Shown here: positions 3,440 to 21,808 of the stretch, piece by piece | Position numbering within the stretch: the first letter of the stretch is position 1 | Layout of the letters: each line of letters begins with the position of its first letter | Position numbers and translations under genes: made by a program | The notes under the pieces: generated by a model | Told to the model about the DNA's origin: nothing | Database searches by the model: none | What the model saw: the letters and a program-made list of their open reading frames with translations, nothing else | Sequence record: OQ921332.1 | Length of the DNA stretch: 64,000 bases | DNA from: Escherichia phage vB_EcoP_PAS59 | Reading direction: 5' to 3' (one strand)

Positions 3440-4185
3440 CCAGATAAAACGATGTAAGGCGCTCTAAAATATCAGAGGAAACCGCTTTATAATCCCTTAC
3501 TGGAAACGACACCACTGATAAATGAAGTTATTGAGTACATGCAAGGCTTAAGCTAATCGCCTACGGTTAAAGGGTAGCGGCGGCGGTGCTAGTAAAGTGC
3601 TACAATAATAGACGTTTATCGGGGTAGTCAAGTCCGACGAATTAACGCTCAATAGCGAGCGGCGGGAGGGGGTTAAAGAGTAGCAAATTGCTATTTAACA
3701 ATAAGGTTTAAGCGTGAGTATTTACTAAGTGAGTGTTTTGATACACATCAATAGCGATGTGAGTACATAAACATGTAGTGTAGTAAATCGTGAGAGAGAT
3801 AATCAAACGCCAAAGTATCAGGCGGTCAATGACTCTTTACCATATGCTTTCCCTTAGTAGGCGATAAGCAGGTTTAGAGAGTTGATATAAAAGGGTATCA
3901 CGAAGCGAAAGCAAAGTAGATAGTAATGCCATCGGCTAGAAATTTAGCTAATTAGAGATGGACGCGCTTGCCTTATTGTGATGATTGATCATCGCTGGCA
4001 AATCGGCTTTGTTTATAGCGATTAGTTGAATCCACCAGATGAAACATCACGGCAAGTTAGGCGGCAAGGTTAACTCCTGATAAGACCGCCTGATTTACCA
4101 CTGGTTACTAATGGTTAGTGATTAGTGTTAAGTCATAGTGACTTGAATAGCCCATAGAGGGCGGCGCATAGTGCGTTTATAATTG
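3440..4185 (+). ncRNA. Long untranslated leader or non-coding RNA (~750 nt) downstream of the promoter/boxA array
   Basis: No ORF of 60 aa or more on the + strand; internal repeats (3565-3610 vs 3671-3706); 11-nt long-range complement 3817-3827 / 4084-4094. Confidence 0.45.
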
Positions 4186-4198
4186 AAAGGTGAATATC

Positions 4199-5101
4199 AT
4201 GGCTAAAGTTTTTAATCTGGTTAACGAATCCGGCTTTAATGCACTGGCAAACAACATTCGTAGCAATAACGCGGCGATCAAACAAGATGTTTCTAACTTC
4301 CTGTTAGGGCATTTGCAGCACTTCCGCACCAACGGTAAGAAACTGGATGTATTGCAGGCGGCGGTTGATTTCTTGTTAACTGAACGTTATCGTGACTTAG
4401 ATGTGATTGCGGTTGCCATCTCTTTCTTAACTCCTATCAAATATAACACTGACGGGGCGAACGGTAAGAAGAAATGGATTAATCTGGAAGGTGAAGCGAA
4501 AGCTAAAGAAGATGCTAAACCGGAACAGGTTAAATCTAAAATGGAACAAAACCGCGCCCGCTGGTCGAATTCCTTTGAACGCTTTGCTAAAGGTGAAGAC
4601 GTGCAGGTTGATAACCCAGCATTCTACAAAGGTTGCAATGACAACGTTCCGGTAGCAAACCAGATCAACCAGAAGGTTAACGAAAACTTTAATCAGGATA
4701 TTTATGCACTGGTTGACCGTCTGGCTGCAATCCGTATTGAAGCGGCATTACTAGCAGATGAACGCAATGGCGCATCTTCTGATAACACTATCGCATTGAG
4801 TGAAGAAGTCGGCAAAGTTAAGAAAACTTTCGATTCACTCCTTAAGAAAGTGACCGCATCAACTGTATCTATCAGCGATGACTACCTGATTAATGCCTCG
4901 ACTAAAGAGCTTGAATCTCTGGACTCATACGCTGATGAAATGGAAAAAGCGATCAACGAAATGACTGAAAAATTGTCTAACCTTCGTGGTCGCATCTCAA
5001 ATGCTTCAACTATCAAAGCGAACGAGAAAGCTGCGCAGGAAGAAGAAGAAGTGTTGCGCAAAGCTGCCGAAATCATGGCAGCACGCCAACAAGCTGCATA
5101 A
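4199..5101 (+). CDS. Early protein (300 aa), C-terminal coiled-coil, unknown function
   Basis: ORF 4190..5101; ATG 4199 after AAAGGTGA; strong terminator follows. Confidence 0.8.
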   Translation: MAKVFNLVNESGFNALANNIRSNNAAIKQDVSNFLLGHLQHFRTNGKKLDVLQAAVDFLLTERYRDLDVIAVAISFLTPIKYNTDGANGKKKWINLEGEAKAKEDAKPEQVKSKMEQNRARWSNSFERFAKGEDVQVDNPAFYKGCNDNVPVANQINQKVNENFNQDIYALVDRLAAIRIEAALLADERNGASSDNTIALSEEVGKVKKTFDSLLKKVTASTVSISDDYLINASTKELESLDSYADEMEKAINEMTEKLSNLRGRISNASTIKANEKAAQEEEEVLRKAAEIMAARQQAA

Positions 5102-5651: not shown

Positions 5652-5861
5652 ATGACTAGTTTAAGCACGTTAGAGAAGAAAGCGACTCGACTGCTAGGAC
5701 GTCGTGTCCGCTACCACTACCTGAATAAAGGTAAGGCATTAACTGGACGTATTACCACGGTATCAAGTCGCTGCGGTAAACTAATCTCCGTAAGTGTTCT
5801 CTTTGATGGCGAACGTGTAGCAATTACACGTAGTTGGAAATCGTTTAGTTTAATTGATTAA
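5652..5861 (+). CDS. Hypothetical protein
   Basis: ORF starts 1 nt after the previous stop. Confidence 0.6.
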   Translation: MTSLSTLEKKATRLLGRRVRYHYLNKGKALTGRITTVSSRCGKLISVSVLFDGERVAITRSWKSFSLID

Positions 5862-6375: not shown

Positions 6376-6405
6376 GCCCCTTCTGTACCAGTGGTCAACT
6401 ACTAT

Positions 6406-6430
6406 GACGCTCTTCTTGAGCGTCTTTTGT
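6406..6430 (+). terminator. Rho-independent terminator T1
   Basis: GACGCTC-TTCTT-GAGCGTC followed by TTTTGT. Confidence 0.75.
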
Positions 6431-6432
6431 CT

Positions 6433-6453
6433 GCCGCCTCTGTGCGGCTTTTT
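6433..6453 (+). terminator. Rho-independent terminator T2
   Basis: GCCGC-CTCTGT-GCGGC followed by TTTTT. Confidence 0.75.
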
Positions 6454-6532
6454 GCGTAGCTAGTGATGCCTAAAGGGAACTCCCTTTGTGAATCATTGGC
6501 ATGGTTCAATCCCTATTGGATGGTCATTTGAC

Positions 6533-6558
6533 CGGGCCTTTAACGAGGCCGCTTTTTT
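6533..6558 (+). terminator. Rho-independent terminator T4 (short stem)
   Basis: GGCC-TTTAACGA-GGCC-GC followed by TTTTTT. Confidence 0.55.
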
Positions 6559-6612
6559 AAGAGTCTTTGCGAGGATTTTTAAATGAGTGAGGTCATGTTC
6601 ACTTTTCAGGTC

Positions 6613-6638
6613 GCCCCGTCTTCGGATGGGGCTTTTTT
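6613..6638 (+). terminator. Rho-independent terminator T5
   Basis: GCCCCGTC-TTCG-GATGGGGC followed by TTTTTT. Confidence 0.85.
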
Positions 6639-6690
6639 ATGCCCGTAAAACAGGGGGTAGTAAGTTCTGATAACGACAGCACAGCTACTT

Positions 6691-7278: not shown

Positions 7279-7584
7279 ATGACTTTAGAGGTTTATAGAT
7301 TCCTTCTCGTACTCACCGTAACGATTTCTGTTCTAGGATTTATTGCGTTAAGTAATAAGTCAGCAAGCTGGAAGCGTCGTTATGAGTTCCTTCTTAAGCA
7401 AGAGGAAGTCTTTAATGCTGATGTTCGTTCCAAACTGCTCAAGATGCAGGAGCAAATTGAAGCACGTAATGATCGTTTGGCTTCTTTGGGTTGGGAGATT
7501 AAACGTATTCAAGATCTCAACAAGCAACTCGCTGAAGAAATTAAACGCCAGAATGAGGAAACAGAGGATGCGCTCAAAGGTTAA
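7279..7584 (+). CDS. Membrane-anchored coiled-coil protein
   Basis: N-terminal TM segment VYRFLLVLTVTISVLGFIAL, then a heptad-like region; AGAGGA RBS. Confidence 0.65.
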   Translation: MTLEVYRFLLVLTVTISVLGFIALSNKSASWKRRYEFLLKQEEVFNADVRSKLLKMQEQIEARNDRLASLGWEIKRIQDLNKQLAEEIKRQNEETEDALKG

Positions 7585-7744
7585 GTTTACCACTGGTAAC
7601 ACTGTTCGCCTTGTTGGCGGTACTCAAACAGGTGTTATTCGTCGGAGAACAACGATTGATGGTGTTCTCTGTTATCTTGTTCAGTGGAATGGTGAGTCTT
7701 CTCCTTCCTTCGAACGTCGTACTGATTTGGTGCTAGTCAAATGA
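7568..7744 (+). CDS. Small protein (58 aa), SH3/KOW-like pattern
   Basis: Internal ATG of ORF 7382..7744, overlapping the end of the previous gene. Confidence 0.45.
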   Translation: MRSKVKFTTGNTVRLVGGTQTGVIRRRTTIDGVLCYLVQWNGESSPSFERRTDLVLVK

Positions 7745-7974
7745 AGATAAACTTCGAAATCATCCCAAAGGTTAAAGAAAAGCAGCTAATCTTCAGTGAT
7801 CTCTCTAACGGGGATATTTTTAAATTTAAGAATGTTGATGCTGATACTTATCTTTGGATGAAAATTGACAAACGGTCTGCCATGAAGTTAAGTGACACTT
7901 CTGACATCACTGATGTATTTATCCATTCTGAAGTCTCTAAGTACAAATACAAAATTATCATTGAGGGTAAGTGA
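7741..7974 (+). CDS. GDxF-family small protein, paralog a
   Basis: LSNGDIFKF motif shared with 6 other ORFs. Confidence 0.65.
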   Translation: MKINFEIIPKVKEKQLIFSDLSNGDIFKFKNVDADTYLWMKIDKRSAMKLSDTSDITDVFIHSEVSKYKYKIIIEGK

Positions 7975-8204
7975 TGAAAATTAATCTCTTCTCTGTAGTT
8001 GTTACTAAAAAGCTCAGTGAGTTACGTCCGGGCGATGTATTCCGTTTACCGACTAACTCTGAAAATGTCTACCTAAAGACAGACACTAGACTTAACGATA
8101 TGCATCGTGTGGTTGGTCTTAGTCAGGGGACACTGTTCCAATTACAGGAAGACCATGAAGTTATCCCTGTACCTGATGTTCAAGTAACTCATATCAATGG
8201 TTAA
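7974..8204 (+). CDS. GDxF-family small protein, paralog b
   Basis: LRPGDVFRL...GLSQGTLFQL...VIPVP; closest to 13948..14199; TGATG overlap. Confidence 0.7.
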   Translation: MKINLFSVVVTKKLSELRPGDVFRLPTNSENVYLKTDTRLNDMHRVVGLSQGTLFQLQEDHEVIPVPDVQVTHING

Positions 8205-8335
8205 GTAACATCGACTTATAGCCCTTGTGTTTATCAGAGGGCTATGTGAGGGTGTTCCTCAATTAACTATAATCTCAACGCCATATGGCTCACCGCTAGG
8301 GCGAGACTTGTCTCAAACATCCGGTGATAGACTAA
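8205..8335 (+). ncRNA. Conserved structured non-coding element, copy A
   Basis: Aligns with 14197-14335; hairpins at 8218-8245, 8247-8261, 8280-8289 and 8303-8314 show compensatory changes between the copies. Confidence 0.5.
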
Positions 8336-8510
8336 AACCTGTTAATTTTCGAACAGCTTTCCGATATGTAGGGGTATGTATCGGTTTGGGATAGAGAACA
8401 ATCTAGGGGTAGAGAGTTCTCGACAGTTAGTACAAGCGGAAGCCTTAACGTGTAGGGCTTCCCTTTATATTAACTGGCAAACCTGCCTCCACCAACAAAG
8501 AGAGAACGAT

Positions 8511-8651
8511 ATGAAGAAGACAACCAAACGTATGAACCGTCCTGAACGTATGGATGCAGTAGCAAATGGTGCTCTGAAGATTGAGTCTGCCATGCTTCGT
8601 CTGACAACTAACATCCGTAAGCGTCAAGGTGATTGGTTCTACGGTGGATAA
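8511..8651 (+). CDS. Small basic protein (46 aa)
   Basis: Internal ATG of ORF 8376..8651 after AGAGAGAA; terminator follows. Confidence 0.45.
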   Translation: MKKTTKRMNRPERMDAVANGALKIESAMLRLTTNIRKRQGDWFYGG

Positions 8652-8660
8652 TTAATAATG

Positions 8661-8690
8661 GGCTGCCCTTCGGGGTGGCCTTTGTTGTTT
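8661..8690 (+). terminator. Rho-independent terminator
   Basis: GGCTGCCC-TTCG-GGGTGGCC followed by TTTGTTGTTTT. Confidence 0.7.
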
Positions 8691-8734
8691 TAATTAAGGG
8701 ACAACTCTTAATTAAACTAACAAGAGAGGTTGAT

Positions 8735-8986
8735 ATGTTCAATCGTTTATTTGACCGTAAAGGTCGCACTGACATACTGATACCCTCTATCGGTGTGCCA
8801 GCTAAGTTCGGTGAGATACGTGCTGGTGATTTCTTCATGGAATCAGGTCGTCTTCATCTGAAGATTAATCTTGAACACGCTGTAGAAATCCTCAGTGATG
8901 ATAAGCCAATCATTGGCACTTCGGTGTACAGTGCAAACCATACTGTATTTGTTGTCAACGTCCAGATTGAGATTAAAAAGCCATGA
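8735..8986 (+). CDS. GDxF-family small protein, paralog c
   Basis: ATG 8735 after AGAGAGG; IRAGDFFM motif. Confidence 0.6.
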   Translation: MFNRLFDRKGRTDILIPSIGVPAKFGEIRAGDFFMESGRLHLKINLEHAVEILSDDKPIIGTSVYSANHTVFVVNVQIEIKKP

Positions 8987-9291
8987 CAATTTCATCTTCA
9001 ACTCGCTGCAATCCTAATGTAGATATCCGTGCTCAAATGTCTAAGATGCCCGGTGTTACTCATTTAGAGTTCACCTACAGTCACTCGCGGTATGAACCGG
9101 GCTTTACTGTGGTAATAAAATCTCCGTGGTTAACAATGACATTGTTCTCGGATGAAGTTGAGAAGGCGGTGAATGGTATTAAGTCAGGCGGACTTAAACT
9201 TTTATCCACTGAACTGGCTGATGAGTTCATGCCTCTTATCCGTAAAGGTGTGGCTAAAATGAACAAAATGATGGAGGCTGCAAAGCAATGA
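8983..9291 (+). CDS. Hypothetical protein
   Basis: ORF, ATGA-coupled. Confidence 0.6.
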   Translation: MTISSSTRCNPNVDIRAQMSKMPGVTHLEFTYSHSRYEPGFTVVIKSPWLTMTLFSDEVEKAVNGIKSGGLKLLSTELADEFMPLIRKGVAKMNKMMEAAKQ

Positions 9292-9542
9292 CAAACTTCC
9301 GAGCAGCAGTTATTACGAAAGTAATAGCAGTTGGTGATGTAATGATGCAAGTTCCTCTGAACACTCGTTACATTGCCATTGACCGAATGGGTTATGTGTG
9401 GGCTTGGAAGTGGAAGCCTACTTACAATGAACTGTTCGACGAATACCAGTGCGCTGGGCCTTACATGCCAACGTTGGTTGGTGTGTATGAAGACGGTCCT
9501 TGTCGTACTCCTCAGTTAATTGAACTACCGGCGTGTGCTTAG
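9288..9542 (+). CDS. Hypothetical protein
   Basis: ORF, ATGA-coupled. Confidence 0.6.
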   Translation: MTNFRAAVITKVIAVGDVMMQVPLNTRYIAIDRMGYVWAWKWKPTYNELFDEYQCAGPYMPTLVGVYEDGPCRTPQLIELPACA

Positions 9543-9543
9543 T

Positions 9544-9708
9544 ATGATTAAATGGTTCAAGCGTCTTGTGCATCTGCATGATTGGGTAATCCTTGAAAAA
9601 TATACGCTGAAGATTACTGACGATCACGGTGGGACAAAGCACAAAGGTCTTCGCTATATTATGCAGTGTAAAGTGTGTGGTCATGTTACCAAGCGTGACA
9701 TGATCTAA
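9544..9708 (+). CDS. MIKWFKRL/CKVCG small protein, tandem paralog 1
   Basis: Internal ATG of ORF 9520..9708; MIKWFKRLVHLHDW...CKVCGHVTKRDMI. Confidence 0.6.
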   Translation: MIKWFKRLVHLHDWVILEKYTLKITDDHGGTKHKGLRYIMQCKVCGHVTKRDMI

Positions 9709-9717
9709 GGGATCATT

Positions 9718-9882
9718 ATGATTAAATGGTTCAAGCGTCTCTTTCATTTCCATGAGTGGGAAGATCTTTCTACTTATGAATTGACGATCACAAATAAACT
9801 TACTGACAGAGAGCGACAAGGGTTGCGTATCTACTCTCGCTGTAAAGTGTGTGGTCTGCACAAGAAAACAGATTTGATCTAA
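9718..9882 (+). CDS. MIKWFKRL/CKVCG small protein, tandem paralog 2 (54 aa, below the ORF-track cutoff)
   Basis: My translation: MIKWFKRLFHFHEWEDLSTYELTITNKLTDRERQGLRIYSRCKVCGLHKKTDLI. Confidence 0.6.
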   Translation: MIKWFKRLFHFHEWEDLSTYELTITNKLTDRERQGLRIYSRCKVCGLHKKTDLI

Positions 9883-9890
9883 GGGGTGTT

Positions 9891-10100
9891 ATGTTCTTTC
9901 GTAAGAAAAAGCCCGAAGATTCTGGATGTAAACATGAATGGGTGGTCACTGAAAACTTACATATCACTCACGCTAAAGACACTCCAGTAGAGAGAAAAGA
10001 ATCTCGTGTATCTCGCATCTGTAAACACTGTTTGAAAATAGAACAGCATAAAGTTCCCGGTCATATCGGTCATGATGTGGCCTTGCGTATTTTCAGTTAA
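9891..10100 (+). CDS. Related CxxC small protein, tandem paralog 3
   Basis: Internal ATG of ORF 9849..10100; ...CKHEW...ICKHCLK. Confidence 0.55.
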   Translation: MFFRKKKPEDSGCKHEWVVTENLHITHAKDTPVERKESRVSRICKHCLKIEQHKVPGHIGHDVALRIFS

Positions 10101-10109
10101 ACAAATCCA

Positions 10110-10185
10110 GCACCCTTAGCTCAATGGACAGAGCAGCGACCTTCTAAGTCGTTGGTTACAGGTTCGAATCCTGTAGGGTGCACCA
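10110..10185 (+). tRNA. tRNA-Arg (anticodon UCU), CCA encoded
   Basis: Acceptor stem GCACCCT/AGGGTGC, anticodon stem GCGAC/GTCGT, loop CTTCTAA, T-arm GGTTCGAATCC, 3' ACCA. Confidence 0.9.
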
Positions 10186-10203
10186 ATCAACGTAGGAGGG
10201 TTT

Positions 10204-10344
10204 ATGACCCCTGAGTTTAATGAGTGGTTCGATGATATCTTTACTTCTCCTTTGTTCAGCGAAGAAGAAAGAGAAGAACTTAAAACCTACCTATGGATGG
10301 CTTGGCGAGATAGCCGCCGTAAGGCGCTTCAGGAGGGATCATGA
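10204..10344 (+). CDS. Small protein (46 aa) with ELKTY.W.AWRDSRRK motif, paralog 1
   Basis: My translation: MTPEFNEWFDDIFTSPLFSEEEREELKTYLWMAWRDSRRKALQEGS; paralog at 11879. Confidence 0.55.
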   Translation: MTPEFNEWFDDIFTSPLFSEEEREELKTYLWMAWRDSRRKALQEGS

Positions 10345-10667
10345 GCTGGGGTGGTGTAATTACCTTAACCTGTATCTTTATCGCCTGTGTAGCTCTTACA
10401 GGCTGTGTACAGCATCGTCCTGATGGGTGGTGTGCATTATCTGTAGAAGGTGTCTGTGTTTCCCGTTGGCATAGTGGGGAGAAGGTTCCTAGCGGTGAAA
10501 TTGATATGCGTTATGCTGGCGCTTCTTGTTCTAATGGCGGTGCTGTTGACGAGAAAGCTTATGCAAAACGTGACATGGAAACACAAGGTGATTGGTCACG
10601 ATACGACTTCATCTCCCGTGGTGTACAGTGTAGTGGCTCTGTGACAACAACAGGTAAGGAGTGGTGA
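10341..10667 (+). CDS. Predicted lipoprotein
   Basis: Signal peptide with lipobox VALTG/C; ATGA-coupled. Confidence 0.7.
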   Translation: MSWGGVITLTCIFIACVALTGCVQHRPDGWCALSVEGVCVSRWHSGEKVPSGEIDMRYAGASCSNGGAVDEKAYAKRDMETQGDWSRYDFISRGVQCSGSVTTTGKEW

Positions 10668-10668
10668 T

Positions 10669-10923
10669 ATGTCTAGTCATTATTCTGATACGAAAGCTTT
10701 ACTGGAAACAGCGGCTCAGACTTCATGCCAACAGCAAGTAAAAATGTTGTTGGTTGATATTCGTAATCTGCGTTGGCTTATCAAAGAAGGTCATATCGGA
10801 AACGCTGCCTATTACAACGTTAAAGATATCCTTCGCCGCCAGCACTTTCTTATCCACGGAAACGTGGTCACTCGCAACTATCAGTGGAATGGTCAATGGT
10901 TACAGCAGCGTATGTCCTCCTGA
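10669..10923 (+). CDS. Hypothetical protein
   Basis: ORF with GGAG upstream. Confidence 0.55.
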   Translation: MSSHYSDTKALLETAAQTSCQQQVKMLLVDIRNLRWLIKEGHIGNAAYYNVKDILRRQHFLIHGNVVTRNYQWNGQWLQQRMSS

Positions 10924-11150
10924 TTTATGTTATTGGTTGGTGGTTAGCAGCCATCGTAGTTAAGTGGTGCTTCAAAACCAATACATTCTATAACTTCTTC
11001 CACAACCCGTGGAGTGGTAAGCCTGATGAATATTCTATCTGGATAGTAATATTCTTCTGGCCTATTTTGTTATTATTCCTCTTACTCATCCCTTTCATGC
11101 TCCTGTTAGGGTGGGTGTTGGACAAGATGACAATCTTTATTATACATTGA
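10884..11150 (+). CDS. Two-TM membrane protein, paralog 1
   Basis: LLIYVIGWW...IVIFFWPILLLF; similar to 11622..11870; start uncertain. Confidence 0.55.
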   Translation: MEWSMVTAAYVLLIYVIGWWLAAIVVKWCFKTNTFYNFFHNPWSGKPDEYSIWIVIFFWPILLLFLLLIPFMLLLGWVLDKMTIFIIH

Positions 11151-11248
11151 AAGAAAGGATTAATAAAACCCACTTCATCATGTATGGTCGTACTAGAAGT
11201 TATATCAAGTATGACTTTTGGAACTCTTACTACGGTTAGGATGTTATT

Positions 11249-11470
11249 ATGAAACTGAATTCTAAACAGTGCCTTAAAACTGTTGAACTATCCTCCCTCT
11301 CTAATGGGGATGTTTTTGGGCACGATAAACATTTCTGGATTAAAACAGATTTCTTAAATGACGGGTACATCACCTGCGTCAATCTTTGGAATGGTTCGGT
11401 AGATGGTTATCGCCCTAGTGCACAAGTGGTTCCTCAGCCTGATGCAAAGGTTGTAGGTTTAGTCTACTAA
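11249..11470 (+). CDS. GDxF-family small protein, paralog d
   Basis: LSNGDVFG motif. Confidence 0.65.
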   Translation: MKLNSKQCLKTVELSSLSNGDVFGHDKHFWIKTDFLNDGYITCVNLWNGSVDGYRPSAQVVPQPDAKVVGLVY

Positions 11471-11479
11471 GGAATTCAT

Positions 11480-11653
11480 ATGGCTTGCTATGGTGGTGGT
11501 GAAGTGTGTGACGATGATGACATGGAATCCAACGGAGAGTGCCCTGACTGTGGGTGTGAGACGTGGAATGGTGTGTCAGTATATCCTGCCTGTAGTTATT
11601 CACCAGTGATTTGTAAAACATGTGGAGATCAACCTTGTGATCAGTCCTGTTAG
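11480..11653 (+). CDS. Cys-rich small protein (57 aa)
   Basis: My translation: MACYGGGEVCDDDDMESNGECPDCGCETWNGVSVYPACSYSPVICKTCGDQPCDQSC; 12 Cys. Confidence 0.45.
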   Translation: MACYGGGEVCDDDDMESNGECPDCGCETWNGVSVYPACSYSPVICKTCGDQPCDQSC

Positions 11654-11870
11654 TGTGTTAATAGTCTACCTGATAGGTATTGTGTTAACCTCAGCTCTGA
11701 TAAAATTCCTTGATGTAAAAGGTAGTGTCGAGTTCAGAGGATGGGGTAACGAACCAAACCTATCAAAGATAGCAATTATAGTTTTTCTATGGCCCATTGT
11801 TGCTGTGATGTTTATATCCCTTTGCTTGTGGGCAGGGCTGTGGGGTTTCATTCTTCCTAAAAAGGAGTAG
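11622..11870 (+). CDS. Two-TM membrane protein, paralog 2
   Basis: LIVYLIGIV...IIVFLWPIVAVMF; start uncertain (GTG options). Confidence 0.55.
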   Translation: MEINLVISPVSVLIVYLIGIVLTSALIKFLDVKGSVEFRGWGNEPNLSKIAIIVFLWPIVAVMFISLCLWAGLWGFILPKKE

Positions 11871-11878
11871 GGGTATTT

Positions 11879-12010
11879 ATGACTAAAGAATTTTTAGAGT
11901 GGTTTGGAAATACCTTCAAAGAATATCTATTCTCTCCAGAAGACTTTGAAGAGCTGAAAACCTACACTTGGTTGGCTTGGAGAGATAGCCGACGAAAAAT
12001 GAATAAGTAA
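11879..12010 (+). CDS. Small protein (43 aa) with ELKTY.W.AWRDSRRK motif, paralog 2
   Basis: My translation: MTKEFLEWFGNTFKEYLFSPEDFEELKTYTWLAWRDSRRKMNK. Confidence 0.55.
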   Translation: MTKEFLEWFGNTFKEYLFSPEDFEELKTYTWLAWRDSRRKMNK

Positions 12011-12305
12011 TATCGTGAAGGACTCTTACGAGAGTCCTTTGAGATAGGACTTCAGATCTTCTATCAAACTAACTTTCACGTAACTAGCCCATAAGGGCGT
12101 TACCCTTCAATAACCCAGCCCACTAAGGGGGCGGGAGTTTAGTGCTGGAAAAGCATAACGCTTATCCTACAAAGGCAACCGATTGTTAGATCTTACATGC
12201 AATATTAATTAATAGGATATGGGAGGATTCGTCCCCTCCCCCTATTTATGAAAGCATTCTCCCGAGAGTTCTCTCATAAATTGGTCCATAACTAAAGGTG
12301 GTAAA

Positions 12306-12560
12306 ATGAAAGTTAACAAACCAGCCAGTAAGAACGCAATACCACTCAGCGCTCTGCGTCTTGGGGATTGCTTCATGTACCCTAACAGTGAAGATGGTGA
12401 TTTGTATATCTTACTGTCTACAGAGTTCTCCACTCGTTTGTGCATTAAGGGTGCGGACGAGCACAGACTTGTAGCCTGTCTTAACACAGGCCGAGCGACA
12501 GCTCCTCGTAAAGATGTTGCTGTTATTCCTATTAAAGCTGAAGCAACTATTAAGGAGTAA
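12306..12560 (+). CDS. GDxF-family small protein, paralog e
   Basis: LRLGDCFMY motif; AAAGGTGG RBS. Confidence 0.65.
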   Translation: MKVNKPASKNAIPLSALRLGDCFMYPNSEDGDLYILLSTEFSTRLCIKGADEHRLVACLNTGRATAPRKDVAVIPIKAEATIKE

Positions 12561-12563
12561 GCA

Positions 12564-12827
12564 ATGGCTCTGACCATTAACAAAACTCGTATTGCGGATA
12601 TTCCTCTAATGGTGGCAGGTGTTTCTATCGGTTCTTTCTTTACTTTGAAAGAAGATAAAGAACAAACCATTTACATGAAAGTGAACAAAAGCTCTAATGG
12701 TTGTGAATACCACCGAGCTGTGTCTGTGCAGAGTGGATACGTTCGTAATATGGCATCCAATATGCCAGTTGGTGTTGTGTTTGAATCAGCAACTCTGGAT
12801 TTAGTGGAGAAGATCAGTGAAACATAA
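12564..12827 (+). CDS. GDxF-family-like small protein, paralog f (divergent)
   Basis: SIGSFFTLKED...YMKV pattern. Confidence 0.55.
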   Translation: MALTINKTRIADIPLMVAGVSIGSFFTLKEDKEQTIYMKVNKSSNGCEYHRAVSVQSGYVRNMASNMPVGVVFESATLDLVEKISET

Positions 12828-13074
12828 AGACCATCCAAAGTATGTATCGCTATTGGATGCAGCCCTTCTCTGCACGTACTGGCTCCTTATTGTTATTGGG
12901 GTTGTGCTAATGATATGTGGTGTCGTACAGTTCTTTATGTATCTGCAAAGCGTGTTAGATACCACATTAGCTAACACTATAATCCTTGCAATTCTCGGTG
13001 TTATTGCTTTCTGTGTGATTGTCTTCTTCGTTTGGTTATCTATGAACGACGACTCTACACACACCTTCTATTGA
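12817..13074 (+). CDS. Membrane protein (2-3 TM)
   Basis: Hydrophobic segments LLCTYWLLIVIGVVLMICGVV and ILAILGVIAFCVIVFFVWL. Confidence 0.6.
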   Translation: MKHKDHPKYVSLLDAALLCTYWLLIVIGVVLMICGVVQFFMYLQSVLDTTLANTIILAILGVIAFCVIVFFVWLSMNDDSTHTFY

Positions 13075-13273
13075 CAGGAGAAAATCAGTGAGAAAACGTG
13101 CCTACTCTGAAGAAGAAATGGTTAACTTGAAAGGCTTCGGTCAACGACAGCCTGACGGTTCAGTTATCTGGTACATTAACGGACAGAAAAAGGCAAGTAA
13201 ATAAGCCCTCTTCTCTCCTCCTTTTAACTACTATGACGCCTCTCTTTTCGGCGCTGTTTTGGAGCTTCAAAAA

Positions 13274-13687
13274 ATGGCTGGGAAATTCCCCAACGTAAGC
13301 AAGAAATTGGCTTACCTCACGTATAAAGAAAACATTGATCTTCTGGTCAAGCTTTATCCGGCTTCATTCAACAAGCAATTCCCTCTTCCTTTGGAGCTTA
13401 ACATCCATAAGGAAATAGCCCGTAAGACCGGTTGGTCAGCGGAGAAAACAAGCATGGTGCTCAACATCTGGACTACTCGTATGGAGTATGTGATGATGGC
13501 CTGTAGCACTGGTAAACGCTTCAAGCTGCACTCTGTAGCTATGAAGATTCGTAGCCCTATCGACCCTGAGCCGATGGCTGGGTTCAGTAGCCGTTTGAAA
13601 TCTTTCCGTGATCGTGGTCGTGTAGTGAAATTCAAGCATGACTTCTCTTACAAGTTTGGATACGAAGCGTTCCAATTTGTTGTTTAA
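13274..13687 (+). CDS. ProQ/FinO-domain-like RNA-binding protein
   Basis: LVKLYPASFNKQFPLPLELNIHKEIARKTGWSAEKTSMVLNIWTTRMEYVMMACSTGKRFKL aligns by eye with the ProQ N-terminal domain (FP.cF....PLKIGI..dl....s...lr.al..Yt....Y......g..R.dL). Confidence 0.55.
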   Translation: MAGKFPNVSKKLAYLTYKENIDLLVKLYPASFNKQFPLPLELNIHKEIARKTGWSAEKTSMVLNIWTTRMEYVMMACSTGKRFKLHSVAMKIRSPIDPEPMAGFSSRLKSFRDRGRVVKFKHDFSYKFGYEAFQFVV

Positions 13688-13714
13688 TCTCTCTTTAAAA
13701 TAAGGTAATAAAAC

Positions 13715-13948
13715 ATGTCTAAAGTTAGCGCAATTGATGCCATCCGTCAGCCGTTCCAGTTCCAGTCTAAATCAACTCAGACCCACAGCGAACCTAAACA
13801 GATTCGTCTGGGCGGTACAGAGAAGACTGTATTTGATATTGCGAAAAACAAAAGCGTAACCATCGTCGAAGGCGGCGAACTGGTTAATGTTTCCCACCGT
13901 ATTCGCACTGGCAAGACTGCCAAAGATCGTGCTAAGAAAGGTTTGTAA
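13715..13948 (+). CDS. Hypothetical protein
   Basis: ORF; AAGGTAATAAAACATG. Confidence 0.6.
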   Translation: MSKVSAIDAIRQPFQFQSKSTQTHSEPKQIRLGGTEKTVFDIAKNKSVTIVEGGELVNVSHRIRTGKTAKDRAKKGL

Positions 13949-14199
13949 TGCAAATTTCCAATAAAACACCTCCTGAGCCTACTGTTCAAGTAAAAGATAT
14001 GACACCGGGAGATGTGTTTCGTTCGGTTGAATATCCGGGGGAATTCTTTATCCGAACCCCTTCTGCCTCTGTTGATGGTGTCACTAAGCCGGTAACAGCA
14101 GTTCAGTTGAGCACAGGTCATCTCTTCCGTTTAGAGCTTGACATGGCAGCTATTCCTGTTCCGACAGCAATCCTCCGCTTCGACGGAGACACAGAGTAA
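13948..14199 (+). CDS. GDxF-family small protein, paralog g
   Basis: MTPGDVFRS...LSTGHLFRL...AIPVP. Confidence 0.7.
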   Translation: MQISNKTPPEPTVQVKDMTPGDVFRSVEYPGEFFIRTPSASVDGVTKPVTAVQLSTGHLFRLELDMAAIPVPTAILRFDGDTE

Positions 14200-14395: not shown

Positions 14396-14420
14396 GGCTC
14401 TCTTAGGAGAGTCCTTTTTT
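14396..14420 (+). terminator. Rho-independent terminator
   Basis: GGCTCTC-TTAG-GAGAGTCC followed by TTTTTT. Confidence 0.7.
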
Positions 14421-14440: not shown

Positions 14441-14608
14441 ATGGATAATAAGTTGAAAGCTAAATTCTTATTGGCAGCAATCTTTATTTGCTTAGCCACT
14501 GTAGGGTTTGTCAGGATGTACTCTTTTGCATCTTGTGAATTAAGCAAGAATGATAGAGGGTCTTACAACTGGCTAACCAATCAATGTGACAAACAGGAGA
14601 AGTTATGA
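14441..14608 (+). CDS. Small membrane or exported protein (55 aa)
   Basis: My translation: MDNKLKAKFLLAAIFICLATVGFVRMYSFASCELSKNDRGSYNWLTNQCDKQEKL; ATGA overlap with the next gene. Confidence 0.45.
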   Translation: MDNKLKAKFLLAAIFICLATVGFVRMYSFASCELSKNDRGSYNWLTNQCDKQEKL

Positions 14609-14967
14609 ACCTACGCCCCATTAAAGGCCATGTGAACCTGTCTACGCTTCATAAAGTAGCAAATGATTTAGGTGGTATGGATGAGAATGATTTGGAGCAG
14701 AATTTGCTCTGGATTGCTAATGGCATCAAGGCGGCAAAGGCCAAAATGGCTCGTGCACAAGGTAAACTAAAAGCGAATAAATATCTTATTCGTCGTCGTA
14801 ATGTCTTGCCTCAGGATGTGGTGAGTTTAGCTTTATCGGGATATAAAGCGGCAGAGTTAGAACTTCAGGAAGCTGAATTTGAAAAGATGCGCTTCCAAGA
14901 GAACTATCGAAACTTCCGTAGTATTGACTACATTCGCAAATCTCTGGGCCTTCTGGTATCAGAGTAA
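14605..14967 (+). CDS. Hypothetical coiled-coil protein
   Basis: ORF; GGAGAAG RBS. Confidence 0.65.
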   Translation: MNLRPIKGHVNLSTLHKVANDLGGMDENDLEQNLLWIANGIKAAKAKMARAQGKLKANKYLIRRRNVLPQDVVSLALSGYKAAELELQEAEFEKMRFQENYRNFRSIDYIRKSLGLLVSE

Positions 14968-14977
14968 AGAGGTAAAA

Positions 14978-16195
14978 ATGTTCCCTGTAACACTTCAAAG
15001 CTGGAAAGAATCAGAAGACGTTGTAACTGTTTGGCCTCCTTGTTATGGTTTCCTGAAAGCAGGTTACTATCAGGGTGGTGATTATGATGAAGATGAAGAT
15101 GGTTATCCTGACTACTACAACGCATATGACAGCAATTTTGGCTGGAATATCCGTATTAAGGTGTGGAGTGAGGGTATGATGGTTCGTCAAGGCACTGCTG
15201 AAGAGAATGTTCTCGAAAACATGATGCCTATGTCCGAAATCAAGTACATCTGGAACTCTGGTACACACCTTCCCGCTTATGGTGTAAAACGTTATGGCGA
15301 TAAAGAGCCTATTACCACTCAGTATTTCCGCGAAGGGTTGGAGAATGGAGACCCTCGTCCTCCGTCTCATGTAGAAACATGGGCAGAAGAAAACAACCGT
15401 CCTGATATTACTGATCGCGCTGTAATGGAAACCTTTGAAGCATTCATGGATAAAGACCTCGATTCATGTCTGGTGTGGCATGAAGCAGGATTCATGGGTG
15501 TTTGTACTGATGGTTGTCCTGCTGATCGCGCTCTGTTCTATCTGATGCTGAATCGCACATTCTATACAGATGATGAAAAATCTGCTGTGTATGAAATGTT
15601 GAACAAGATGTATAAGAAGGGCTGGTCTCCTTTAGCCTCTCTTGCATTCAGCCGACTGATCAACTCTTCAGTGGATGTGTTCGGTAACGAACGTGTTGCT
15701 TTAACAGGGAATGATTACGATTCCTGTATCTTCCAAGCATCTCTGTATACAGTGGGTGTTGGCAGTACAATGGTTGAACCTCGCCAGACCAAGTGGCGAC
15801 AGTGTGAATACACCGAAGGTGAAGGGCATCTTCGTGATGAAGACTTCCCCAGTCTGCTCTACCGTAGTGAAGGTGTGCGAGACTGTCGAGTGAATAACTC
15901 AATGTTCTTACCAATCCTTCTTCCTCAGTATTGCAATCTGCCGAATGGTGAACGTCCGGTCATCACAGAGAAGTCACTCTTGGTTGAATTTATCCGAGAA
16001 GTAGCTGAATCTGAAACATCTTTTGATAAAATTGTGTTCGGTTATAACTGGAACAATGAAACAGCTTCAGCTCGAAGCTACAACACGTATAACATTATCA
16101 GTAGTATGTCCAATGGACTGACAGGTAGTAATTATACAGTACGTCCCTCAGAAGAGTGGGAAAACATTTTGGAAAAATTATTCTTCAATAAATAG
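14978..16195 (+). CDS. Conserved protein of the amidoligase operon (405 aa), unknown function
   Basis: Internal ATG of ORF 14879..16195 after AAAGAGG. Confidence 0.75.
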   Translation: MFPVTLQSWKESEDVVTVWPPCYGFLKAGYYQGGDYDEDEDGYPDYYNAYDSNFGWNIRIKVWSEGMMVRQGTAEENVLENMMPMSEIKYIWNSGTHLPAYGVKRYGDKEPITTQYFREGLENGDPRPPSHVETWAEENNRPDITDRAVMETFEAFMDKDLDSCLVWHEAGFMGVCTDGCPADRALFYLMLNRTFYTDDEKSAVYEMLNKMYKKGWSPLASLAFSRLINSSVDVFGNERVALTGNDYDSCIFQASLYTVGVGSTMVEPRQTKWRQCEYTEGEGHLRDEDFPSLLYRSEGVRDCRVNNSMFLPILLPQYCNLPNGERPVITEKSLLVEFIREVAESETSFDKIVFGYNWNNETASARSYNTYNIISSMSNGLTGSNYTVRPSEEWENILEKLFFNK

Positions 16196-16203
16196 AGGCG
16201 AAT

Positions 16204-17154
16204 ATGTCAATCTCCGCATCGATTGCTCCGGTAACACCGGCAGAGGATTTCGGTGAGTCAGTGTTTAAAGGAAGGGCTTGCTTTGGTACTTTTAACTGTA
16301 TGCACATGTACTCTGTTACAGACATTAATGGCGACAGTCTTAGACAAACAAACCTTCGTGATAGAACTTCAGAAATTGAAGTTATTAACTTCTGGCCTCA
16401 CAATTTTTATGGCGTACCGTCTAAAGATATCGAAAGAGCTTTAGTTGAAGCAACAGACATTTTTAACTCAATGTCTTGCTATAAAGATATGTTCTCTGTC
16501 ACTTCGGTGAACTCTATTGCCGTGAACCTTCGAAACCATCCAGCAGACAAGGTGTTTACTGGACTAATGACCATCCGTAGCTATTTGGATGGTGATTTTA
16601 ATGGAATGGAGTTCCTTCAGGAAGGCGTACAAGACAAGGAAGAGTTGCTTAAGCGACAACGAATCGGTTTAGCTCTACGCCTAGCTGGTTTAAGTCGTAA
16701 CTTCTTTGGTCGCTGGTGTTATAGTAATGACGTAGACTCAACTGATGAGTCAGCAGCGACTTATTTTGATGGTGACATGAGTGCAATTGCATTTCTGCCA
16801 CTAATTTGCACCACTGATGAATTTTCTGAAAACGTATGGGTTCAGAATGTGTTCGGTGTTGATGATAACCGAGATGGTTATGTACGAAACCATAATGATG
16901 GAGTTCTCCGTCGTATGGCACGTCGTCGTGACCAAGACCCTGACCATTATGAGAGTATGAGTGAGTGGTTGCGTCTCTGGTCAACTTGTGCAGGTCACAA
17001 GCGAGAAGTATTAGATCAGCGTATGGACAGAATTACTGTTCGCAGTTTTATTGAACGTCTGATGCAAGCAGTACCTTCCTCAATGACACCAGAAGAAGCT
17101 GGTGCCCGTGTTGTTTCCCTTTTTGATGAACTCGTGGAGTATTACAATGACTAA
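16204..17154 (+). CDS. Conserved protein of the amidoligase operon (316 aa), unknown function
   Basis: ORF; overlaps the next start. Confidence 0.75.
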   Translation: MSISASIAPVTPAEDFGESVFKGRACFGTFNCMHMYSVTDINGDSLRQTNLRDRTSEIEVINFWPHNFYGVPSKDIERALVEATDIFNSMSCYKDMFSVTSVNSIAVNLRNHPADKVFTGLMTIRSYLDGDFNGMEFLQEGVQDKEELLKRQRIGLALRLAGLSRNFFGRWCYSNDVDSTDESAATYFDGDMSAIAFLPLICTTDEFSENVWVQNVFGVDDNRDGYVRNHNDGVLRRMARRRDQDPDHYESMSEWLRLWSTCAGHKREVLDQRMDRITVRSFIERLMQAVPSSMTPEEAGARVVSLFDELVEYYND

Positions 17155-17953
17155 GCGCGCTTTCCTTATTGGCTCTGACCCTGAAATGTTTGTTCGTACT
17201 GCTTCCGGTATTATCACCTCTGTGGCTGGTAAGCTGGGCTGTTCTAAAGATAATAAAATTGATCTGGCTCCTGATGTTCGTCTTCAAGAAGACAACGTTC
17301 TGGCTGAATTCGATATTAACCCACAGAAAGGGTTTGAAGCGTTTGATGATAATATTCAGCGTGGTATTGATCTGACTAACAAAGTTCTCAATGAACGTGG
17401 CATGGAGGCAGCACTTGGGATTAGCTCTCATGTGTTCACTTCAGAAGAACTTGAATCATTCCACCCGTCAGCTTTTGTATTTGGCTGTACTCCTGATTTC
17501 AATGCCTTCACTGGACAAAAGAACCCTTCACCAGTCGCAACCGATAAGGGTTTGCGTACTGCTGGGGGTCATGTGCACCTTGGTGTCTCCGGGACTTTAG
17601 AGATTACTCGACAAACTCAAATGATGTTGGGTGTGTTATGTGATTACTTCCTGTCCTTGCCAGCTGTGATCATGGATAAAGACACTCGTCGTAAAGAGTT
17701 GTACGGAAAGGCTTCTGCCATTCGCTACAAAGATTACGGTATTGAATATCGTTCTCTTTCTAACTTCTGGATTGGTGATAAGTCCACTCGCAAGTTTGTT
17801 TACGAGCAAGTGGATAAGGTTGTTCAGGGTTGTGATATGGAAGTGTTGATGTCACTTCACTCTCGCCTTCCAATTGAAAAGCTTCATAACATCATCAACA
17901 GCAACGATGTTAAAGAAGCGGATAAATTCTCCTCTAAACTCCAGATTGTATAA
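17147..17953 (+). CDS. Putative COOH-NH2 ligase (phiEco32-like amidoligase type 2)
   Basis: FLIGSDPEMF...EFDINP...GCTPDFNAFTG...GGHVHLG...EYRSLSNFW pattern, recalled from the phage COOH-NH2 ligase family. Confidence 0.55.
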   Translation: MTKRAFLIGSDPEMFVRTASGIITSVAGKLGCSKDNKIDLAPDVRLQEDNVLAEFDINPQKGFEAFDDNIQRGIDLTNKVLNERGMEAALGISSHVFTSEELESFHPSAFVFGCTPDFNAFTGQKNPSPVATDKGLRTAGGHVHLGVSGTLEITRQTQMMLGVLCDYFLSLPAVIMDKDTRRKELYGKASAIRYKDYGIEYRSLSNFWIGDKSTRKFVYEQVDKVVQGCDMEVLMSLHSRLPIEKLHNIINSNDVKEADKFSSKLQIV

Positions 17954-17962
17954 GGTGATATT

Positions 17963-18589
17963 GTGAGCTTGTTAAGAGATTTTCAACACTATTATTGTGG
18001 AACATGGATTGCTCAGCGATCACCTGATGGTAAAAACCTCCCTCTATATGTGCTTGATGTTCGTCAGCAAGGTAACTTTGATATCGACGACTACTCACAC
18101 GACGCTGAAAGGTCTTTAGTGTTTGAGGCGGAACGCTGGACTAAAAACTCTGAAGGTCAGTTTGAACGTCAGATTGTTAGTAATATCCCAGTGTTTGATC
18201 ACAGCCTCATTCTAGAGTCTCCAGATGTAGGATACCTTCAGCATGGTAATAACATGGTGAGCTGGACCCATATCAACCCTGTTCGTCAGCGAGCTAAAGG
18301 CTTGATGGGGAATAAACTTCGTGGTGCTGCACCTTCTCTCGGACGTTCGATTCCGGGTGATTTGGTGTACAACTTGTTTAATCCAGAGTTTGAAGGGTTG
18401 GTTACTCGTTTCATCTATATCAACCCTGTCGATGGAAAAGTGTATTACAAAGGGGCTTACGTTGGAAACGTGCTTCTTGAAGCTGGCTATGGCGACAACG
18501 GTCGCCAATCTTTAAACCTTCTGGAGAAGTTCAAGCACATTTCTTCAGACCTGTCATCATATAATGTAGAGTTGGTGGAATCACTATGA
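17963..18589 (+). CDS. Conserved protein of the amidoligase operon (208 aa), unknown function
   Basis: GTG start after AAGGTGA; ATGA-coupled to the next gene. Confidence 0.65.
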   Translation: MSLLRDFQHYYCGTWIAQRSPDGKNLPLYVLDVRQQGNFDIDDYSHDAERSLVFEAERWTKNSEGQFERQIVSNIPVFDHSLILESPDVGYLQHGNNMVSWTHINPVRQRAKGLMGNKLRGAAPSLGRSIPGDLVYNLFNPEFEGLVTRFIYINPVDGKVYYKGAYVGNVLLEAGYGDNGRQSLNLLEKFKHISSDLSSYNVELVESL

Positions 18590-19686
18590 CAACCGTAGCA
18601 CAAGTTTTTGGATACCGTAACCCTCGCTTATCTGAACCGCATCCAAGCATTGCTTTTCAGTGTGGTGTTGGTATTGAGTTAGAAGTCGAAGGTACTACTG
18701 ACATTGACGTTGATATGTGGGTTTGTACTGAAGACGGCTCTCTTCGTGATGGTTGTGAGTTAGTGTGTTCACGACCTTACAACGGTGAAGAATTACTTCG
18801 TGCTATTAACAATCTGAGTGAAGCAGTACAGGATTCTGGAGCCGAGGGGACTTGGCGCTGCTCCACTCACGTTCATATGGATATGCGGGACGCTGATAGT
18901 AATATCCTTAAGAAAGTTATTCTTGGGTGGACGTTCTATGAAAAGATGATGTTCAAATGTTCTGGATATCATCGTTACCGTAGTAACTTCTGCCCAGCTT
19001 TTGCTGTTGTTCAAGCTCAAGTTATGAATGCTTCATCAGCGTTCAACCGAGATGGGGAAGATTTCTTCCGTACTCTTGTTAATAGCTGGGACAAGTATAC
19101 CTCCCTTAACCTGTTGCCTCTATCTCAGTTTGGTTCTGTTGAGTTTCGTATTTCAGAGCCGAAGTGGAAAAAGAGTCAGCTGCTAAATCTGGTCAATCGC
19201 TTCTTGGTTCTCAAGAAACTGGCTGTTGAATATGCAGATTTAGATAATGAAGCTTATGTTGAGAAGTTGAATGAGCTGCGCTTCGCTCCTATGATTCAAC
19301 ATCTACCTCTAGACTATACTCCAAGAGATAGCGATCTCACTGAAGGGTATCGTCTTGCCCGTGATATTCTGTTCTGTCGTGAGCAATCTGTAACTTTGGT
19401 TGGTCGTGTTCGTGTGCAACAGACTGGCCCTGATGGTGAAGTCCTTATCAACTTACGTGACATGAATGACTTCTATGGTTTCTTGGGATATGTGCGCGGT
19501 AATGCCAACACTGTCTATGAAGAGATCATGACCTACTACACCCCTCAGATTGAAAGCACTCGAATCGCAACGGTTCGTGAAATTCGTCACATGTTTGCAT
19601 TGATGCGTGAATCAGGTAGCAGTGATAATAACATCACTGATTACATTCCAGACCATCTGGAAATGCAATTAGAACGACTGCTGTAA
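18586..19686 (+). CDS. Putative amidoligase (glutamine-synthetase-like COOH-NH2 ligase fold)
   Basis: GVGIELEVEG...EDGSLRDGCELV...STHVHMD...GSVEFRI motifs typical of the Amidoligase_2 family. Confidence 0.6.
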   Translation: MTTVAQVFGYRNPRLSEPHPSIAFQCGVGIELEVEGTTDIDVDMWVCTEDGSLRDGCELVCSRPYNGEELLRAINNLSEAVQDSGAEGTWRCSTHVHMDMRDADSNILKKVILGWTFYEKMMFKCSGYHRYRSNFCPAFAVVQAQVMNASSAFNRDGEDFFRTLVNSWDKYTSLNLLPLSQFGSVEFRISEPKWKKSQLLNLVNRFLVLKKLAVEYADLDNEAYVEKLNELRFAPMIQHLPLDYTPRDSDLTEGYRLARDILFCREQSVTLVGRVRVQQTGPDGEVLINLRDMNDFYGFLGYVRGNANTVYEEIMTYYTPQIESTRIATVREIRHMFALMRESGSSDNNITDYIPDHLEMQLERLL

Positions 19687-19763
19687 CACAATGGGCGCTC
19701 TGATAAAGGGCGCATTTAAAGGTTAATTAGATGAAAGGGTTTACCCTTCAGGTGGATTAGAAA

Positions 19764-21797: not shown

Positions 21798-21808
21798 GAG
21801 GTATAGTT

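Follow-up and report, generated by a model that had tools for sequence, protein, structure and literature searches.

No function is known for about two-thirds of the genes of phiEco32-like phages, whose early clusters are assumed to hold host-takeover and counter-defence factors. In phiEco32, the gp69–gp128 cluster has been assigned to the early class by experiment; it is transcribed by the host sigma-70 RNA polymerase (RNAP), is described as the most variable part of the genome and is assigned a 'likely' role in host takeover (PMC8948821; PMC4281155). The same phage group encodes gp79 of phiEco32, an 82-amino acid (aa) small early regulator that binds RNAP and so acts on the host machinery (PMC8948821). 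The present analysis concerns a 64,000-nucleotide (nt) stretch of Escherichia phage vB_EcoP_PAS59 (sequence record OQ921332.1; hereafter, the window), which represents a phiEco32-like E. coli podovirus of the subfamily Gordonclarkvirinae (nearest genomes PAS59, SU7 and Bas87). In its early region, seven small open reading frames (ORFs; p1–p7 in the order of their positions) had been singled out in an earlier note as diverged paralogues with a 'GDxF' motif. These genes are found here to belong to an old multigene family that spans the whole subfamily and extends to many other phages, and whose members are predicted to fold as SH3-like barrels.

All seven ORFs of the earlier note are confirmed, on the plus strand, and each of the motif strings quoted for them is correct:

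p1, 7741..7974, + strand: 77 aa, LSNGDIFKF; overlaps the upstream ORF's stop with its ATG start and the p2 start with its own stop
p2, 7974..8204, + strand: 76 aa, LRPGDVFRL; the most central, consensus-like copy
p3, 8735..8986, + strand: 83 aa, IRAGDFFM; divergent, with an N-terminal extension of ~20 aa
p4, 11249..11470, + strand: 73 aa, LSNGDVFG
p5, 12306..12560, + strand: 84 aa, LRLGDCFMY; the most constrained copy
p6, 12564..12827, + strand: 87 aa, SIGSFFTL, a motif without the Asp; begins 3 nt after p5
p7, 13948..14199, + strand: 83 aa, MTPGDVFRS; acidic, with an isoelectric point (pI) of 4.8; the start overlaps the stop of the upstream ORF

Each of the seven starts has either a Shine–Dalgarno-like sequence or a stop/start overlap with the preceding gene, which, together with the selection on the coding sequences described below, indicates that these are real, maintained genes. 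The ATG of p2 sits within a GTG-initiated ORF and that of p3 within a longer TTG ORF; the database orthologues of p3 are 83–84 aa long, so that the start at 8735 is supported. The copies, at 73–87 aa, fall within the single-domain size class of the family (about 67–90 aa). Apart from the extended p3, the N-termini read MK(I/L/V) in p1, p2, p4 and p5, MQI in p7, and MAL in p6.

Homology among the copies was assessed by comparing Smith–Waterman local alignment scores with those of 200 shuffles. The alignment is better than that of shuffled sequences, the comparison by which the earlier note had proposed that its family could be refuted: four copies (7974, 11249, 12306 and 13948, i.e. p2, p4, p5 and p7) form a core with pairwise z = 5–13, and 7741 and 12564 (p1 and p6) connect to it via p2 with z of 4.6–6. 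The 8735 ORF (p3) reaches z of 5.1 and 3.8 with two members and stays at the noise level with the others, and individual pairs are at noise as well (p3 versus p4, z = −1.3; p4 versus p6, z = −0.9). When the 630 six-frame ORFs of the window were searched with a hidden Markov model (HMM) built from six members, the copy left out was always the best match outside the training set (E-values of 2.4e-8 for p1, 8e-12 for p2, 6e-7 for p4, 9e-4 for p5, 3e-4 for p6, 9e-5 for p7 and 0.11 for p3). An independent profile, made of 99 metagenomic proteins with p2 as the only member from the window, recovers p2 (2e-21), p4 (3.7e-17), p7 (2.8e-15), p5 (4.4e-15), p6 (3e-10) and p1 (1e-9) and matches nothing else in the 64 kb, p3 being missed by this HMM-to-sequence search. 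In profile–profile comparison with the family (hhalign probabilities), p1 scores 96.6% over its N-terminal half and p6 95.1%. The p3 protein is accepted as a divergent member because the profile built from its five orthologues aligns with that of the family along the entire domain (94.7%, E = 6e-8), its TH34 orthologue matches family HMMs directly (9e-6 and 7e-4), and three negative-control small ORFs, including phiEco32 gp79, score 0.1–0.5% in the same test.

Thus, the four-part layout and the true paralogous relationship claimed in the earlier note are borne out by the leave-one-out HMMs, the independent profile and, for p3, hhalign: six copies are statistically solid homologues by sequence comparison, and the membership of p3 rests on the profile–profile evidence. 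The earlier note had labelled 12564 as the divergent copy, but p6 is a solid member, and it is 8735 that diverges. Scans with the family HMMs and profile detected no eighth member in the window. The plus-strand ORFs 5652–5861 and 7568–7744, which look SH3/KOW-like by eye, were rejected as unrelated to the family (hhalign 0.1–0.2%) and to each other (z = −1.8), and gp79, at a probability of 0.5%, is not homologous either.

A small beta-barrel had been proposed for these proteins, and structure prediction agrees. The AlphaFold2 model of p2, derived from a 25-sequence family alignment, has a predicted local distance difference test score (pLDDT) of 80.8 and a predicted template modelling (TM) score of 0.64, and its five strands form the strongly bent antiparallel barrel by which an SH3-like fold is recognized; a model of p3 from five close orthologues is uninformative (pLDDT of 39). 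From the p2 model, the family members are predicted to fold as a five-stranded SH3/Tudor-like beta-barrel, a generic fold that names no function. A Foldseek search of the PDB with this model yields nothing at E ≤ 1e-3, and the list shows generic barrel fold classes. Among the predicted viral structures, the significant Foldseek matches are all uncharacterized proteins and come from other Gordonclarkvirinae, from N4 (Gp21) and N4-like phages, and from phages of Serratia, Proteus, Morganella, Vibrio and Erwinia.

The family pattern consists of an N-terminal MK(I/V), h-x-F/L-x-x-L-x-x-G-(D/E)-V-F, h-(Y/F/W)-(M/I)-(K/R), A-V-x-L-x-x-G and V-I-P-V, and corresponds to the hydrophobic core of the barrel and two glycine turns. 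Across 100 diverse members (p2 numbering), the only invariant residues are G20 and G52, followed by F23 and V63 with a conservation of at least 95%; conservation elsewhere is confined to hydrophobic core columns and to K2, D/E21 (83%) and K/R35 (97%). All seven copies in the window share G20 and F23, and G52 is present in p2, p4, p5, p6 and p7, whereas p1 and p3 cannot be aligned clearly at this position. No counterpart of the aromatic cage of Tudor domains emerged at the sequence level, where the conserved aromatic residues F14, F23 and Y33 appear to be core positions. No conserved His, Cys, Ser or acidic constellation was found across the 100 members. Positions on the surface and in three loops are free to vary and accept insertions. 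The variable segments of p2 are residues 4–11, 26–31, 37–44 and 53–62, the last three being loops with indels (long insertions occur in 37–44), and the same segments vary among close orthologues. The lack of a conserved catalytic set, combined with conservation confined to the core, argues for a non-enzymatic scaffold. The 126 remote members have a median pI of 5.4, with 60% below 6 and 10% above 8, and this acidic-to-neutral character argues for protein rather than nucleic-acid partners.

Known barrels of this fold class show no closer kinship. The C-terminal SH3-like domains of FeoA and DtxR/IdeR share ~12–18% identity with the family, with no link to iron transport or metal regulation, and Pfam FeoA (PF04023) matches neither the seven proteins (E ≤ 1) nor 100 remote members (E ≤ 0.01). 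Similarly, the CarD, Mfd RID, UvrD CTD and NusG/Spt5 KOW barrels have no sequence-level relation to the family, and Pfam KOW, Tudor and CarD_TRCF match neither the seven proteins nor the 100 remote members. Pfam, NCBIfam, PADLOC and PDB sequence searches gave no usable match for the family; the weak Pfam matches (FliMN_C, E = 0.12; DUF3114, E = 0.009; DUF6502; DUF4265) fall far short of the curated cut-offs and were disregarded.

A relative in a well-known phage is gp21 of N4, a 74-aa uncharacterized protein of the same length and layout that is a clear member of the family (E = 3.3e-18 with the remote-member profile; Foldseek E = 1.6e-4 and TM score of 0.79–0.81 against the p2 model). N4 has a single copy, located after the RNAPII genes, whereas the copies in the window lie in a sigma-70 early cluster. 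No description of the family and no functional study of N4 gp21 were found in the literature, and a scan of the first 50 kb of T4 revealed no family member.

The family turned out to be broad. An exhaustive HMM search of 1.84 billion cluster representatives (50% identity; E ≤ 1e-3) retrieved 1,487 clusters, most of the proteins having 67–90 residues, so that the multi-copy set of this compact genome is no local invention and belongs to a very large superfamily. An MKI or MKV start is found in 96 of the 126 remote members. The matches include tandem fusions of two, three or five domains and an 834-residue protein with about nine repeats. These repeats correspond to the N-terminal half of the domain (the GDxF...YMK part), and the contig concerned (ERZ1749587 NODE_474) encodes three such half-domain repeat proteins, which may represent an architecture distinct from the single-domain form:

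237–2741: 834 aa, about nine repeats
3441–4004: two repeats
4015–4611: two repeats

The sole fusion to a recognizable domain that was seen is in a metagenomic protein of 153 aa (P0186), in which the family domain is followed by a C-terminal segment with weak similarity to many helix-turn-helix models (E about 2e-3, which does not reach the cut-offs). The remote members are found on phage-like contigs amid small accessory genes, in one case with two members adjacent on a short contig, and their neighbours include dUTPase, methyltransferase, DNA ligase, a Lar-like gene and YopX. A 130-kb Vibrio phage also carries a member.

All the PHROG families involved (6570, 7832, 7431, 8365, 16423, 9955, 12612, 10911 and 34455, plus 22099 for p3) are of unknown function. 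The paralogues match their own families (p1, 10911; p3, 22099; p4 and p7, 6570; p5, 7832; p6, 12612) with E-values of 1e-21 to 1e-41, and cross-match several of the others; of 100 remote members, 96 match phrog_6570 and 93 match phrog_7832. PHROG keeps these as separate families, and neither the superfamily link nor the multi-copy arrangement is recorded there; phrog_22099 shows no cross-match and joins the family via profile–profile comparison only. Simpler searches did not reveal this breadth. A tblastn comparison of a consensus-like member with 50,697 phage records, too insensitive a search, returned the Gordonclarkvirinae and one Vibrio phage only. A strict MKI..GDVF..YMKT DNA pattern had no matches in 185,579 species genomes and one in IMG/VR, which says little because only 9 of the 144 best-scoring cluster representatives carry the exact motif; a looser DNA pattern was dominated by chance (expectation of about 3,000), with a true member at 1 of the 120 loci returned. 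A further homologue search with the 100-sequence alignment retrieved just 22 proteins and contributed little.

Within the subfamily, family HMMs were run over the early regions of seven relatives. The copy number per phage is as follows:

SU7, Bas87 and EK010: 5 copies each
ECBP2 and the window: 7 copies each
TH34 and CHD5UKE1: 8 copies each
phiEco32: 9 copies (gp95–98 in tandem, gp104, gp109 and gp113–115 in tandem)

The composition of the sets differs as well. Among the seven relatives, p1 has orthologues in ECBP2 and TH34 only, and p4 in the Kuravirus phages only, namely phiEco32 (gp104, 88% aa identity) and CHD5UKE1; p4 is absent from SU7, Bas87, EK010, ECBP2 and TH34. The Kuravirus phages hold a largely different set of copies. 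The alleles are mosaic: p7 is 59–60% identical to its counterparts in SU7 (8832–9089) and EK010 (13130–13387) while the nearby p5 is 100% identical, which points to allele replacement by recombination, and divergent p6 alleles are found in Bas87 and TH34.

Pairwise Nei–Gojobori ratios of non-synonymous to synonymous substitution rates (dN/dS), calculated for whole genes within each of the seven orthologue groups, are 0.01–0.33, the lowest being those of p5 (0.00–0.10 across six phages) and p4 (0.06–0.08, or 0.06–0.23 at the widest). The ratios are 0.12–0.17 for p1, 0.03–0.29 for p3, 0.04–0.24 for p6 and mostly 0.03–0.32 for p7; the exception to low dN/dS is the comparison of p7 between the window and Bas87, which differ by just six non-synonymous changes and one synonymous change. 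Within the genome, the paralogues are 17–37% identical, and the nearest relatives are not the tandem neighbours; every paralogue scores better with some remote representative than with its genome-mates, although at least one of these 'remote' relatives sits on a fragment of an unsampled phiEco32-like phage. A recent burst of duplication in this genome was rejected on these grounds. The diversifying duplication proposed in the earlier note finds no support as a process still under way, because the paralogues are old and dN/dS is low; the whole-gene ratios give no sign of ongoing diversifying selection, and the turnover consists of gain and loss of copies and replacement of alleles. Judging from these comparisons, this is an old, clade-wide multigene family that evolves by gain, loss and allele exchange, with each retained copy under purifying selection. 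The comparison across related phages suggested in the earlier note thus bears out a multi-copy family (5–9 copies) and reveals purifying selection throughout. On the whole, its observation is confirmed. Its interpretation is supported in part: the family, the fold and a plausible role as binders held up, and uniqueness to this genome and diversifying selection did not.

The 6.5-kb region matches 108 phage records, nearly all of them Escherichia podoviruses of the Gordonclarkvirinae (phiEco32 group), the best being Bas87, SU7, EK010 and ECBP2 (90–95% identity over 77–82% of the query); the counterpart genes are labelled 'hypothetical protein' in every annotated relative. All nine phiEco32 family members fall inside the gp69–gp128 early cluster. 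By analogy of location with that cluster, the seven genes are assigned to the early, host sigma-70-dependent class, in agreement with the early region named in the earlier note; they lie in the accessory part of a virulent phage genome. A consensus scan shows a terminator-like hairpin 3' of p7, the last family member:

14396..14413, + strand: terminator-like hairpin at which this early transcription unit may end

In the SU7 record, a terminator is annotated at the corresponding position, behind the p7 orthologue. The scan picked up terminator-like hairpins at 13 sites, compared with 6 expected from shuffles. Two strong ones (8438–8462 and 8660–8681) lie in the ~530 nt between p2 and p3 (8205–8734, +), a segment without a convincing gene, and four more are clustered at 6406–6632 (region 6400–6640, +); these hairpin-rich stretches, 8205–8734 and 6400–6640, could act in the early region as regulatory or RNA elements. 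A tRNA-Arg gene (anticodon TCT; 10110–10185, +) in the middle of the early cluster is kept in all the relatives examined. Directly downstream of the family, from 14879 onward (+), lies a conserved gene cluster (compare Bas87 14580–21851), annotated in the relatives as COOH-NH2 ligase, amidoligase, glutamine-fructose-6-phosphate aminotransferase-like and ATP-grasp/S6 glutaminyl transferase. This cluster may be a modification pathway relevant to the restriction resistance reported for these phages (PMC11990801).

Other paralogous small ORFs are found in the same region, all on the plus strand. Those at 10204–10344 and 11879–12010 (43–46 aa, helical-looking; MTPEFNEWF...LKTYLWMAWRDSRRK and MTKEFLEWF...LKTYTWLAWRDSRRK) are clear paralogues, with a score of 145 and z = 20 versus shuffles. 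Three consecutive ORFs (9547–9708, 9718–9882 and 9849–10100) are paralogues that share a Zn-ribbon-like CxxC motif at the C-terminus (MIKWFKRL...CKVCG); the first is related to the second at z = 24, and the third is more distant (z = 5.9). Two predicted membrane proteins, 10884–11150 (FFWPILL) and 11622–11870 (FLWPIVA), are paralogues at z = 8.8. Because the helical-looking pair and p4/p5 lie near the membrane-protein pair, the segments 10204–11470 and 11622–12560 may stem from an old segmental duplication that was rearranged (the order being helical, membrane, barrel in the first and membrane, helical, barrel in the second).

The explanation that we prefer, while stopping a little short of calling it probable, is that the family members are loop-variable SH3-like binders, each with its own partner, employed in host takeover or counter-defence. 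The conserved core, the free loops, the concatenation in fused proteins, and the absence of catalytic residues and of a basic surface together point to a binding module for proteins rather than nucleic acids. Under this explanation, the single-domain proteins of ~70–90 residues would be small non-enzymatic binding modules in which specificity would be seated in the variable loops and the N-terminal segment, the conserved core only holding the barrel. The genes would be transcribed by the host sigma-70 RNAP right after injection, and each paralogue would bind a different partner, most likely a host protein, resulting in takeover or counter-defence. The set would be part of the accessory genome, with copies gained, lost and swapped among related phages and the retained ones kept by purifying selection. 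We infer the activity, the targets and the role alike. Of the binding function suggested in the earlier note, the part that stands is the conservation of structural residues only, which fits a binding scaffold; no target was identified by any search. The Gordonclarkvirinae are reported to be highly resistant to the defence systems tested (PMC11990801), which is compatible with an anti-defence role and not specific to it.

Several observations weigh against loop-variable binders of host proteins. A confident structure model is available for only one of the seven proteins (p2), and its structural neighbours are generic, many of them RNA or DNA binders (uL2, EF-P/eIF5A, KOW, PWWP with single-stranded DNA). 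The Pfam, NCBIfam, PADLOC and PDB sequence searches came up empty and thus matched no characterized anti-defence or takeover protein, and we know of no partner, phenotype or interaction on record for any family member. Purifying selection of this strength (about 0.03 for p5) is seen more typically with housekeeping functions of phages than with arms-race genes. Furthermore, other genes may be behind the restriction resistance of these phages.

An alternative that we consider unlikely is that these are small nucleic-acid-binding barrels (compare Sso7d/Cren7, KOW, HspQ and PWWP), which would act on DNA or RNA of the phage or the host to regulate transcription, translation or genome protection. 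Among the closest structural neighbours of the p2 model are many that touch RNA or DNA (uL2 C-domain, EF-P/eIF5A domain I, Spt5 KOW, HspQ, PWWP with single-stranded DNA), P0186 is fused to a helix-turn-helix-like segment, the basic residue at K/R35 is highly conserved and three copies in the window are mildly basic (pI of 8.1–8.8). The family as a whole, however, is acidic to neutral and lacks a conserved basic patch, with Lys2 and a single other position conserved as basic; a generic binder would hardly account for seven to nine divergent copies in each genome, and a barrel fused to a helix-turn-helix is more naturally a partner- or ligand-binding domain, as in DtxR/IdeR.

A phage-internal role, in which the proteins would, for example, assist complexes of replication, nucleotide metabolism or DNA modification as adaptors or chaperones, would account for the strong purifying selection, notably on p5 and p4, for the location just upstream of the conserved amidoligase/glutamine amidotransferase/ATP-grasp cluster and for remote members that adjoin DNA ligase, dUTPase and methyltransferase genes. 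Yet none of the copies occurs in every phage: several close relatives lack p1 and p4, and the Kuravirus set is largely different, which makes core machinery improbable; the copy number varies from 5 to 9, and the neighbours are wholly different between phage groups. We regard such a role as distinctly unlikely.

The early class assigned to these genes, and the precedent of phiEco32-like phages reprogramming the host RNAP via small proteins, the gp36 sigma factor and the gp79 inhibitor (PMC8948821), bring to mind Tudor-like RNAP modulators that dock on the beta subunit, like CarD, Mfd, UvrD-CTD and RapA-NTD, to redirect or shut off host transcription early in infection. This seems very unlikely, given that the family is unrelated to gp79 (hhalign 0.5%), that one shared target is implausible for seven to nine paralogues at <35% identity, and that a member (gp21) is also present in N4, a phage that relies early on RNA polymerases of its own. 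Chance or compositional resemblance, or ORFs that are not genes, could be suspected from the low pairwise identity and the several pairs at the noise level, but is practically excluded, save for the dependence of p3 on profile–profile evidence, by the leave-one-out and independent profiles that single out exactly these ORFs among 630, the 1,487 related clusters, dN/dS well below 1 in every orthologue group, the ribosome-binding sites and the confident fold prediction for p2.

The preferred reading, partner-specific binders with variable loops, can be taken further: the family might be a general loop-programmable binder scaffold of virulent phages, a minimal SH3-like 'monobody' multiplied and diversified to neutralize many host or defence factors. 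We offer this as a speculation with slim prospects. The scaffold occurs in two formats, single-domain arrays (5–9 per Gordonclarkvirinae genome) and tandem-fused polyproteins with up to about nine repeats. If the speculation is true, the family would rank among the largest unrecognized groups of phage effectors for counter-defence or takeover, and its members include N4 gp21 and proteins of BASEL phages Bas86–93.

The family has no name, and the category to which it belongs, small SH3-like accessory proteins in multigene arrays of virulent phages, is a familiar one. If its members are loop-variable binders, they would lend themselves naturally to protein engineering as a minimal scaffold; a routine phage-internal role would make the result an ordinary one. 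The value of the finding lies in the unification of many 'unknown' families and in tractable models (N4 gp21 and BASEL Bas86–93), rather than in surprising biology demonstrated so far. At least nine 'unknown' PHROG families are merged into one SH3-like superfamily, which comprises >1,400 sequence clusters without a Pfam entry, accounts for 5–9 early genes per genome in this phage subfamily, and is represented in N4 and in BASEL phages able to grow on E. coli K-12.

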